Notes under the pieces: generated by a model | Database searches by the model: none | What the model was told of the DNA's origin: nothing | What the model saw: only the letters and a program-made list of their open reading frames with translations | Part shown: piece after piece, positions 5,785-14,230 of the stretch | Layout: each line of letters opens with the position of its first letter | How positions within the stretch are numbered: position 1 is the stretch's first letter | Virus record (IMG/VR): IMGVR_UViG_3300046003_006038 | Location: 1-64,000 of that record | Strand: one strand, 5' to 3' | Source of the DNA: a virus | Taxonomy: Duplodnaviria > Heunggongvirae > Uroviricota > Caudoviricetes | DNA length: 64,000 bases | Made by a program: the position numbers and the translations under genes

Positions 5785-6210
5785 TCACTCTACCAACTGA
5801 TTTAGTAAAAAAAGTTGTTGAAATTTAGATAAAATAATACATTTTTCATAATACTCTTCTTCTATAAATAGATCAAGTATTTCCTGTAGGGCGTAGTTAA
5901 TGGATTGTAATCCAAATTCATCCTGTAGTGATACAATAGTAACTTCCGGTATCTCTTCAATTCTCTCAAGGTATCTCATAAGTCCTATAAAGTACTTTAG
6001 TTTAATAGAATCCCTTACGCAGTCATATTGCTGGCCGTATCTTTTTTCATATAACTGATCTATTATGTAATAATTCTCCACCCCCTTCACCACCGTCCCA
6101 AATAAAACAAAAGTGTTATCCAACACATTCTCGGATTGGTGTTCTCTATACACTTCTTCATCTCCTATCTGGAATATGTTGAAGAGTTGATTTGTATCTA
6201 ATTTTTTCAT
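5785..6210 (-). CDS. hypothetical protein
   Basis: ORF in track, ATG start. Confidence 0.55.
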   Translation of the reverse strand: MKKLDTNQLFNIFQIGDEEVYREHQSENVLDNTFVLFGTVVKGVENYYIIDQLYEKRYGQQYDCVRDSIKLKYFIGLMRYLERIEEIPEVTIVSLQDEFGLQSINYALQEILDLFIEEEYYEKCIILSKFQQLFLLNQLVE

Positions 6211-6270: not shown

Positions 6271-6537
6271 ATGAATTTCTGGAAATTATACGGAAAAGGT
6301 GATTTGGAATTATTTATTAGTATGGAAGTATATAAAAACTTTAGCGGGAAATCATCTGTATATGCATATATTATAGGAGCAGATTACATATCCATACAGT
6401 TTAAGAATTTAAAAGTTTACAACTACACATACTCTAGGGCAGGGGCAGGTAATGTAGAGAGAATGAAAACTTTAGCCAAACAGGGGTTGGGGTTGAATAC
6501 TTTTATTAAGAGGTATGTCAATAGTAATTATAGTTAA
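6271..6537 (+). CDS. KTSC-domain protein (only plus-strand protein gene accepted)
   Basis: YISIQFKNLKVYNYTYSRAGAGNVERMKTLAKQGLGLNTFIKRY matches the KTSC pattern (..V.FKNG.VY.Y..V.......SKG...N..I...Y). The start could be the internal Met at ~6322. Confidence 0.5.
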   Translation: MNFWKLYGKGDLELFISMEVYKNFSGKSSVYAYIIGADYISIQFKNLKVYNYTYSRAGAGNVERMKTLAKQGLGLNTFIKRYVNSNYS

Positions 6538-6695
6538 ACTTATATAAATATATATTACCATAGTCTAAAAATCATCAGAAATATCTCTCTCAACTAAACC
6601 CGAGAGACCCGACTGTGATACCCGTTAGGGAAACATACTAGCAGTTTTCTCTCAACTTGACATCACCGTGACGTCACCTTGACCATCCACAAAAA

Positions 6696-6716
6696 AAAAA
6701 GAGGCCTAAGCCTCTT
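6696..6716 (-). terminator. rho-independent terminator (bidirectional hairpin GAGGC-CTAA-GCCTC with A10 / T-run flanks)
   Basis: aaaaaaaaaagaggcctaagcctcttgttt; on the minus strand the hairpin is followed by T10. Confidence 0.7.
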
Positions 6717-9548: not shown

Positions 9549-9635
9549 TAGTCAGGACAGGATTTGAACCTGTATCTTTATGTTGCCTAGTATTTTTACC
9601 GTACAACTTGCGTCTACCAATTCCGCCACCTGACT
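9549..9635 (-). tRNA. tRNA-like gene, type II (tRNA-Leu-like D-arm), non-canonical anticodon region; possible pseudo-tRNA
   Basis: Minus strand AGTCAGG-TG-GCGGAATTGGTAGACGC...ACAGG-TTCAAAT-CCTGT-CCTGACT-A. It has a perfect 7-bp acceptor, a Leu-type D-arm and a canonical T-arm. No 5-bp/7-nt anticodon stem-loop can be drawn in the 36-nt middle segment. No encoded CCA. Confidence 0.5.
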
Positions 9636-12859: not shown

Positions 12860-12905
12860 TTACTGTTTTTAGATACCTAAAGATAAGAACAATAAGCCTT
12901 ATAAG
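12860..12905 (-). promoter_or_regulatory. phage-family promoter element (variant)
   Basis: agatacctaaagataagaac...gcaact. Confidence 0.5.
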
Positions 12906-12944
12906 CAACTTTTTATTAATCTTTTTTTTAACCCCCTCCTGCAA

Positions 12945-13540
12945 GGGGGGAAGAGATGGGGAGAGGTAACGGGTAGCTAGAACGGGTCTCTATCGGGTCT
13001 CTAGACGGGTAACAAAACGGGTTACTAGCCCGGGTTACCAAACGGGTAGCTAGAACGGGTATCTCCTTACACTCTCTCCCTGTCCCCTATAGGTACCGGT
13101 ACCAAACGGGTATCATAACCGGGTATCTCCTTACACTATAAGACAGTATATTACCTCTTATATAGAAAAAAACTATTAGGGAGGCACATACCCCTCATTT
13201 TCCTTATACTTATTTTACCTAGCCTTTTACCTTCTTCTACACATCGTATATACTATACAGTACCTTTTCATACCTACTACCATATGTCTTTATACTCTTT
13301 ACTAGGTTTTACTACTCTTTATGTTTAATCAGAGTCCTTAACCTTTTATTATGTATCTCAGCAGTTCTCCCTATGTCTCTCCTTATATCTCTCCAGCTCT
13401 ATATGTATGTATATTCGGGTAATGGGCCGGGACAGAAACGGGTAATTGAATGGGTATCGGACCGGGTCGCAGACCAAGGAGCCTGCTTAGGCTTCGCCGT
13501 TGGTAGACGGGTCTCTTAACGGGTTTCTCTATAGGATTGT
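12945..13540. repeat. iteron region: at least 15 copies of (A)ACGGGT-type heptamer in two clusters flanking a pyrimidine/AT-rich 280-bp core; candidate replication origin or pac region
   Basis: aacgggtagctagaacgggt occurs twice; gggtatctccttacact occurs twice. More ACGGGT/CCGGGT copies at 13437-13530. No credible ORF. Confidence 0.55.
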
Positions 13541-13627: not shown

Positions 13628-13846
13628 TTACCCCTCTACGGATATTTTCTTTATTCTTATTTGCCAAACTTCTTTTACTTTTATGTATCCATTCTCGTCT
13701 GGCTTTCCTACATACTTTAGTAAGGTCATATGACTATTCTTTTTTATTAGATTGAATGTCTTTGGATCATAATAGTCTCTAAGGGTAATAATATAACCTA
13801 TCCTTCTACATATTCTCCAATAAAGATTTCCTATTAGCTTTTTCAT
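13628..13846 (-). CDS. hypothetical basic protein
   Basis: ORF in track. Confidence 0.45.
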   Translation of the reverse strand: MKKLIGNLYWRICRRIGYIITLRDYYDPKTFNLIKKNSHMTLLKYVGKPDENGYIKVKEVWQIRIKKISVEG

Positions 13847-13847
13847 A

Positions 13848-14036
13848 TTATTCGTCCATTGACATAAAGAATGATACTATAAGAGCCATTACCATATACA
13901 ACCTAACATAGGCCCATTCAATATTTGGTTCAAGAATACTCCATGTTATAAAACATCCTATTGCATACAATACTATACAAAGTGCTAACGGTAATGCTAT
14001 AAAAAATCCTAAATAAATTTCTAAAAACTTTTTCAT
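13848..14036 (-). CDS. small membrane protein
   Basis: ORF in track, trimmed to the MKKFLEIYLG start; two TM helices. Confidence 0.5.
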   Translation of the reverse strand: MKKFLEIYLGFFIALPLALCIVLYAIGCFITWSILEPNIEWAYVRLYMVMALIVSFFMSMDE

Positions 14037-14230
14037 ATCTCTTCCAATGTTAATATTGATATACAATGTGGAAAGTTATCATAGTCTCTTAGGATGATTA
14101 ATCCACCTGCTTCCTTTACCACCTGTACAGCTATTCCTTCTATAACCTTTCCTGCTCCTTTTCTAGAGTTAAAGGTTACTTTATTACCTCTATACTTCTT
14201 ATGATATAATACTACGTCTTCAATTTTCAT
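14033..14230 (-). CDS. hypothetical protein
   Basis: The track start is TTG; the ATG (MKIEDVV) was chosen. Confidence 0.5.
   Translation of the reverse strand: MKIEDVVLYHKKYRGNKVTFNSRKGAGKVIEGIAVQVVKEAGGLIILRDYDNFPHCISILTLEEI

Follow-up and report, generated by a model that had tools for sequence, protein, structure and literature searches.

The DNA between positions 12945 and 13540 of the phage sequence analysed here (a stretch of 64,000 nucleotides, called the window throughout) poses a simple question: what purpose is served by about 600 bp filled with short direct repeats and devoid of credible genes? The first-pass annotation of this region had reported at least 15 heptamer copies in two clusters, lying on either side of a pyrimidine-rich core, and had proposed either a replication origin or a packaging (pac) site. 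Both proposals imply that the repeats are recognised by a protein.

Exact copies of the pentamer CGGGT were found 15 times, all on the plus strand, within the 555 nt from 12970 to 13524, whereas the rest of the 64 kb held only 12, distributed over both strands. With a Poisson probability of 4.6e-32 for at least 15 copies, this clustering cannot be ascribed to chance, and the two clusters of repeats claimed for the region were recovered. The units, of the form RAACGGGTWWCTA, are arranged in two plus-strand arrays. The left array (12966-13137) contains 11 units, degenerate ones included, with a period of 11-13 nt: eight contiguous units at 12970-13060 are followed by a 35-nt spacer and by three further units, one of them degenerate. 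The right array (13413-13535) contains seven units, at 13416, 13428, 13439, 13451, 13463, 13508 and 13520, and is broken by a 30-nt hairpin insert (13476-13505) which is also present in the homologous sequence L016. The top-scoring array detected in the window by Tandem Repeats Finder spans 12968-13061, with a period of 13/25, and the two longer direct repeats listed in the first-pass annotation were both present (families D2 and D3). The elevated GC content was borne out as well: compared with 33.9% for the window, the value is 43.8% for the 12945-13540 region and rises to 52% and 55% in the two arrays. Likewise, no ORF of at least 30 aa was found in 13140-13357, and the short ORFs that overlap the arrays were not conserved in the relative described below; a coding role for the element was rejected, as no ORF in it is conserved.

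The only match in phage collections to the 2.5 kb around the element was Flavobacterium phage vB_FspM_immuto (immuto hereafter; MW353175; genus Immutovirus, source Baltic Sea, host Flavobacterium sp. LMO8), with a nucleotide identity of about 81%. The window, which belongs to an 83-kb JGI metagenome contig, has every sizeable ORF on its minus strand, and in the 160,410-bp immuto genome one strand carries nearly all of the ~240 genes. The head, tail and terminase genes of immuto are T4-like. Its large terminase has as best matches the gp17 proteins of T4 and RB49 (E 2.5e-38; Pfam 'T4likevirus-type'), and about 2,500 relatives of this terminase were found in sequenced phages, mainly T4-like phages of enterobacteria and cyanobacteria. 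The immuto replication set comprises DnaB, DnaG, a family A polymerase (PolA), SSB and RecA, with no annotated initiator. In immuto virion DNA, each G is replaced by 7-(formylamino)methyl-7-deazaguanine (PMC10516641). For the large T4-related aquatic Flavobacterium phages with such one-strand, fully 7-deazaguanine-substituted genomes, neither a replication origin nor a packaging site nor any further cis-acting control element is known to have been described, and our literature search found no paper mentioning the iteron element. No comparable periodic array was found in Microcystis phage Mel-JY01, which is, by its terminase (51% identity), the closest cultured phage outside the genus.

To recover homologues of the element, IMG/VR was scanned with exact patterns and the JGI metagenomes with a protein anchor, and contigs were also looked up by exact protein sequence. 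The element was present in at least 12 distinct related contigs (IMG/VR, JGI), and in all the recovered contigs both arrays had the same strand polarity. Among 10 homologues, 122 out of 122 units were co-oriented, and the start-to-start spacing was 11, 12 or 13 nt in 124 of about 150 successive pairs. The number of left-array units, counted in a relaxed manner, ranged from 8 to 13 among homologues, and their positions in the window were largely in register with those of immuto. The whole module, from the hairpin through the left array and the core to the right array, is retained from contig to contig while the genes next to it have been exchanged on either side, and homology with the relatives ends at the outer edge of the right array. 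Since the module is kept while the genes on both sides vary, the element, as judged from these alignments, is under stronger constraint than its coding neighbours.

The arrangement is also unique in the genome. Clustered units were found in the complete immuto genome only at the element, which occupies the largest ORF-free gap of that genome, and an unbiased scan of its 160 kb for any 5-mer repeated with a period of 10-14 nt returned the element as the sole match. Among 185,579 reference bacterial genomes, 93 matches were obtained; only one of them had flanking CGGGT units, and it corresponded to a 3.3-kb contig from a Baltic metagenome bin. A host or plasmid source of the element was rejected, the remaining reference-genome matches being at the number expected by chance. 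A generic search of viral contigs for ACGGGT at a 12-nt pitch mostly retrieved coding repeats of the Gly/Thr type and unrelated arrays, and was discarded. An apparent T7-like parallel, L058, was also discarded, as it proved to be an array in an unrelated contig of 40 kb, where it precedes an operon that contains Rad52.

Between the two arrays lies a single-copy, conserved and ORF-free non-coding core of 273 nt (13138-13412), which keeps invariant blocks of 8-14 nt across 13 sequences. None of its 10-mers recurs elsewhere in the immuto genome. The core had been described as strongly strand-asymmetric, AT-rich and easily melted, a description that did not withstand closer analysis: its GC content, 32.6%, is at background level, and its pyrimidine content, 64.8% compared with a window mean of 57.7% (SD 3.8%), is just 1.9 SD above the mean, an excess reached at about 30 other places in the window because all genes are on the minus strand. 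The argument from an easily melted core fails, since the composition of the core is ordinary for the window. The only AT tracts standing out are two short ones (~20 nt) at the core edges (13159-13182 and 13399-13415). At the left edge there is also a weak hairpin followed by a run of seven T residues (13178-13195), terminator-like on the sense (minus) strand; the T run is conserved in clade A and its stem is poorly conserved. A conserved GTATAAAGA within the core was considered as a late promoter and rejected, the T4-type late promoter TATAAATA not being enriched on the immuto coding strand (15 vs 30).

Read in the direction of transcription, from right to left, the locus consists of an upstream gene (13628-13846), the right array, the core, the left array, a GC stem-loop, an A-tract, a promoter and a series of small early genes. 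The GC stem-loop (12932-12950), formed by a C-run, a variable loop and a G-run, is not followed by a T-run on either strand and has about equal folding energy on both; its stem is kept with differing loops in 8 sequence variants, and it is missing in L129 and L130. The predicted promoter, TTGC-N20-TATCTTTA (12878-12908, minus strand; regex scan), is of the host type used for early genes and follows the Bacteroidetes consensus, -33 TTG and -7 TAnnTTTG. It is conserved in every homologue, clade B (see below) included. Matches to this promoter format numbered 21 on the minus strand, at 4.8-19.7 kb of the window, and in immuto they lie at 60.9-76.2 kb. The 12878-12908 promoter is the first in a dense run downstream of the element, and early-type promoters also extend for 5.5 kb upstream, so that the element lies roughly one third into the early-promoter zone and does not mark its boundary. 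No phage-consensus promoter was found by regex scan within the core or the arrays, and the sigma-70-style matches in the element were dismissed as being at chance level and irrelevant to a Bacteroidetes host. No intrinsic terminator was found in the window between the upstream gene and the right array; immuto has a strong one directly upstream of the right array.

Two further observations bear on what the units are for. The first is a natural switch in the unit. In the contigs of clade B, a more distant sister clade that includes the 102-kb contig IMGVR_UViG_3300032607_001425, every unit reads AAACCG(T/A)T (AAACCGNT) instead of AACCCGTT, and the rest of the layout is retained, namely the 12-nt pitch, the two arrays (5-7 units on the right, 10-16 on the left), a core whose homology is still recognisable and the downstream promoter; the neighbouring 65-aa protein is 49-66% identical. 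The second is a minor site at 6598-6624, 6.35 kb from the left array, where three units stand in inverted orientation (minus strand). Apart from the main arrays, units paired at 11-14 nt spacing occur nowhere else in the window, and in immuto only at the homologous place (74,210); the scan returned 12 unit pairs, compared with a mean of 0.22 in shuffled sequence. The minor site, with 2-3 units, is conserved in immuto, L016 and L047, and lies 5.8-7.6 kb from the core in the 4 sequences examined. It falls within a second conserved non-coding block (~6560-6690), which also bears three GGTGAnGTCA repeats, and is located just after a terminator and upstream of a -7-like TATATTTA box.

A concerted one-base change at ~18 sites, together with an inverted second site, would be expected of the binding sites of a sequence-specific double-stranded-DNA-binding protein, and the clade switch is the pattern expected if sites and binder had co-evolved. 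The inverted minor site built of the same unit, and the immuto terminator directly upstream of the right array, point to recognition at the DNA rather than the RNA level. Taken together, these features argue that the element is almost certainly a cis-acting docking platform for a sequence-specific phage DNA-binding protein. The original idea of protein-binding iterons is thereby supported by conservation, uniqueness, the second site and the unit switch. In the ten proteins encoded next to the element, Pfam and PHROGs revealed neither an initiator-like nor a DNA-binding domain. The conserved small neighbours F0 (65 aa) and F1 (48 aa) are basic proteins, and these two, together with a 141-aa protein downstream of the minor site (5785-6210), may be considered candidate binders by position only. 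The clade-specific switch could be exploited to identify the putative binding protein by swapping. Being unique in the genome, strongly constrained and endowed with a natural specificity switch, the element is the clearest handle on cis functions of this kind in these phages.

Which process would such a platform serve? We regard an origin of phage replication as the most likely answer, with rather less than even confidence. In the proposed sequence of events, a phage protein would bind the AACGGGT units, one per 12 bp and all in the same direction. Because 12 bp exceeds the 10.5-bp helical repeat, successive sites are rotated by ~50 degrees, and a cooperative filament with this pitch could impose a superhelical path on the DNA to either side of the core. 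This wrapping might then put the short AT tracts at the edges of the core under strain or melt them, after which a DnaB-type helicase, a DnaG-type primase and a family A polymerase could enter. The 2-3 inverted units 6.4 kb away might be an additional site at which the same protein exerts control or forms a loop; initiator systems typically include a secondary iteron site (P1, F and P4 ori/crr). An origin is consistent with the position of the element among early genes, inside the zone of host-type early promoters, and also with the gene content of the relative, which has DnaB, DnaG, PolA, SSB and RecA and no annotated initiator. Of the features of an iteron origin, multiple direct repeats are found here as ~18 periodic, conserved units of putative binding function; an adjacent AT-rich unwinding element was not found, the core having 32.6% GC compared with 33.9% for the window, and neither was an adjoining initiator gene among the ten flanking proteins. 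Further points count against an origin: a core more conserved than coding DNA exceeds the needs of a simple unwinding element, the units are all co-oriented, unlike those of SaPI origins (PMC9371898), and the concatemer junction of T7 matches the element at least as closely as any known origin. Cumulative GC skew, which the first-pass annotation had suggested as a check, rises almost without a break across immuto, and its slope in the window is unchanged at the element; as the skew is monotonic, with no turning point at the element or anywhere else, it is uninformative on the origin. We infer replication, rather than packaging or regulation, as the process served. Thus, of the initial suggestion of an origin or a pac site, the iterons stand and the melting argument does not, an origin is plausible and a pac site is weakened, the choice between the two not being established.

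The likeness to T7 leads to the first alternative, in which the element would be a packaging or terminus site, either a T7-type concatemer junction or a pac site. In the T7-type version the 273-bp core would represent a short direct terminal repeat, its two copies having been collapsed into one during assembly; in the pac version the small terminase subunit would bind both arrays and the large subunit would cut in the core. The correspondence with T7, the ends of which have been read directly, is close: five CCTAAAG-type units, a 160-bp terminal repeat, 12 units at 12-13 nt and early promoters, all units being co-oriented, to be compared with seven units, a 273-nt core, 11 units at 11-13 nt and an early promoter in the window. 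In both cases the promoter-facing array has more units. Co-oriented arrays of this period flanking a unique segment and followed by early promoters are, in other words, what was found at the element. The placement of nearly all immuto genes on one strand is also as in T7-like genomes with fixed ends, and it is after the element that early promoters and small variable genes are packed most densely. For the pac version, P1 and SPP1 offer precedents in which binding repeats flank the position where pac is cut. The pac and cos sites known so far, however, adjoin terminase genes, and in immuto the element (66.3-66.9 kb) is 53 kb from the large terminase gene (119.0-120.6 kb), not in or beside a small-terminase gene. 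The terminase type is not that of fixed-end, T7-like phages either: it resembles the gp17 of T4 and RB49, and T4 DNA is circularly permuted, without defined ends (PMC3016281). Other findings weigh in the same direction. Early-type promoters occur for 5.5 kb upstream of the element as well; the inverted second site has no counterpart in packaging systems; and none of the related contigs ends in the core, their ends being scattered and several short contigs running through it, an argument which is weak because assemblies collapse terminal repeats. On balance we consider a packaging or terminus site unlikely.

A regulatory or architectural array, judged to be similarly improbable, is the second alternative. 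A phage protein produced early or in the middle of infection would coat the arrays and the minor site, and so switch early transcription, by shutting it off or insulating it, or organise the DNA, much as ParR does on parC or protein p6 on phi29 DNA; it would take no direct part in initiating replication or packaging. About 60 nt separate the end of the left array from the -33 element of the promoter that opens the dense cluster, the minor site likewise precedes its -7-like TATATTTA box in a non-coding block just after a terminator, and the element occupies a central, not a marginal, position in the early-promoter zone, all of which would suit a regulator. Against this, the core and arrays contain no phage-consensus promoter, and no core motif was found elsewhere in the genome. 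It would be unusual for a regulator to need 18 sites around a conserved spacer of 273 bp at one locus and only 2-3 sites at a single further locus, and the units at the two loci face opposite ways relative to the downstream promoter. A centromere-like variant is not favoured either, since the annotation of the relative includes no partition ATPase or actin-like gene.

A third possibility, very unlikely in our opinion, is that the element reads the modification state of the DNA, its binding protein sensing modified GGG as distinct from the newly replicated, unmodified sequence. The arrays are the densest G patches (26-35% G) on a G-poor strand with a background of 14%, and parallels for gating by modification exist in Dam methylation at the P1 pac site and in SeqA at oriC. 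If this were true, a modification-sensing binder could restrict replication or packaging to DNA in the appropriate state, and the element would be the first cis-element known to be gated by 7-deazaguanine modification.

The last and least probable alternative, to which we give hardly any credence, is an RNA-level element, either a Rho-loading (rut) insulator or a non-coding RNA spanning the whole region. Classical rut sites have cytosines regularly spaced about every 12 nt, and the sense transcript of the arrays would read ACCCGUU every 12 nt, with 35% C and 20% G in the right array; in addition, the window lacks an intrinsic terminator between the upstream gene and the right array, and the promoter side of the element is closed by the GC hairpin. 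Several findings oppose it: the unit at the minor site is in the opposite orientation, the arrays of immuto are preceded by a strong terminator, and the sense strand of the left array, with 26.1% C and 25.5% G, is not poor in G. For a rut site a conserved heptamer would be unnecessary, and a concerted one-base switch in every copy would not be expected. A structured non-coding RNA in the core was rejected, as folding of both strands gave z-scores of -0.14 and +1.30, none of the 34 predicted pairs was compensatory, and Rfam returned no family over the element even at E<=1. No tRNA was found over the element either. More generally, a purely RNA-level or compositional role would be hard to reconcile with the unit switch and the inverted site.

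How does the element, which we tentatively regard as an origin, compare with known systems? Elements in which short protein-binding repeats are arrayed around a core are known from other systems. New here are the 12-bp pitch, the co-orientation on both sides, the long, conserved core of ordinary composition, the second, inverted site and the unit switch. Among replication origins, those of the SaPIs share with the element an arrangement of 6-12 short (5-6 nt) iterons in two sets around a centre, recognised in their case by a self-loading helicase initiator that loads on each side (PMC9371898). SaPI iterons are oppositely oriented on the two sides (PMC9371898), whereas the units of the element are all co-oriented. 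The SaPI centre is short and AT-rich, in contrast to the 273 bp of conserved sequence with background composition found here, and SaPI origins directly follow the rep gene, whereas no such gene was found beside the element. T4 oriE has, like the element, evenly spaced 12-nt repeats, the replication role of which was never established (PMC3016281). It lies within gene 5, and the only tandem repeat that we found nearby in the T4 record has a 24-nt period and is coding; unlike oriE, the arrays of the element are non-coding and flank a core.

Among packaging sites, the pac sequences of P1 and SPP1 are located in or next to the small-terminase gene and consist of 160-270 bp with 4-7 repeats, whereas the element covers ~600 bp, has ~18 repeats and is 53 kb from the terminase gene. 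Wrapped nucleoprotein complexes offer two more comparisons. The parC centromere of plasmid R1, with 5 + 5 direct 11-bp repeats around a promoter core that form a cooperatively wrapped complex, resembles the element in having direct repeats on both sides of a core; the core here has no promoter, and a partner of the ParM/ParA type is absent from the annotation of the relative. The p6 protein of phi29 contacts DNA every 12 bp and wraps the phi29 replication origins. The spacing is that of the element; p6 binding is not sequence-specific, whereas the units of the element are conserved and switch as a set between clades.

The closest overall likeness in layout, that with the T7 short-repeat arrays, involves unrelated sequences, CCTAAAG in T7 and ACCCGTT here, both of 7 nt, and very different phages: T7 is a 40-kb podovirus with its own type of terminase, and the phage studied here has a terminase and a head of the T4 type. 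Moreover, early promoters on both sides of the element and a second, inverted site are found here and not in T7. We know of no function assigned to the T7 arrays (SRR and SRL), and given their likeness to the arrays described here, solving the function of either element could explain the other.

A shift in base composition was found at the element, in the record of the sequenced relative Flavobacterium phage vB_FspM_immuto (L003, 66-76 kb) and at about 7-12 kb of the window. In the early-gene block lying downstream of the element, GC skew reaches its genome-wide maximum (0.30-0.36) and GC content its minimum (28-30%), and AT skew is lowered; upstream, GC skew, GC content and AT skew take ordinary values. 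Early promoters follow a phage-wide format, TTGC-N20-TA(t/c)(a/c)TTTA, for which 21 matches were obtained on the minus strand between 4792 and 19677. At two of these sites, 10796 and 10467 (minus strand), the spacer separating the two promoter boxes contains a terminator hairpin with a UUCG loop, so that terminator and next promoter overlap. A tRNA at 9549-9635 on the minus strand was called with an Rfam model (43.5 bits); ARAGORN did not call a tRNA at this location.

Besides the element, another non-coding block of the window (6560-6715) was conserved, being kept in immuto and in the related contigs L016 and L047. Read in the sense direction, this block begins with a strong terminator (6690-6715), followed by three GGTGAnGTCA repeats (6657-6690). 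Next come three iteron units in inverted orientation (6598-6624), along with a TATATTTA box. The next downstream gene conserved in the relative (5785-6210) encodes a 141-aa product with 59% identity to immuto26A_145. An 88-aa ORF was also observed on the plus strand at 6271-6537, within a stretch that immuto, L016 and L047 lack. Its product resembles a KTSC domain by eye, a Pfam search of this ORF gave no match, and it would be the sole plus-strand gene in that part of the window.

Small hairpin-containing inserts have been gained or lost inside the element among relatives. In immuto and contig L130, a 45-nt insert separates the core from the right array, and the window and L016 carry a 30-nt insert inside the right array (window 13476-13505). 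In the more distant sister clade, the elements (contigs L252, L260, L261, L267, L268, L270 and L271; for example, L268:1420-1900 and about 150-790 of L271, reverse strand) are built from the unit AAACCG(T/A)T, and one additional unit lies inside their core. The left array of L270 and L271 is split by an insert with the inverted repeat ATTCGCAAT...ATTGCGAAT. In L260, L261 and L271 the reading frame of a small upstream ORF enters the first units, the product in L261 terminating in ...ENRLENRLEN.

Finally, an unrelated 40-kb viral contig (L058) harbours at 13975-14130 an array of 10 CACGGGTGCTACT units with a 13-nt pitch, which adjoins a pyrimidine-rich tract and is located upstream of a leftward operon with a Rad52-family recombinase; this array may represent an analogous element in another phage group.
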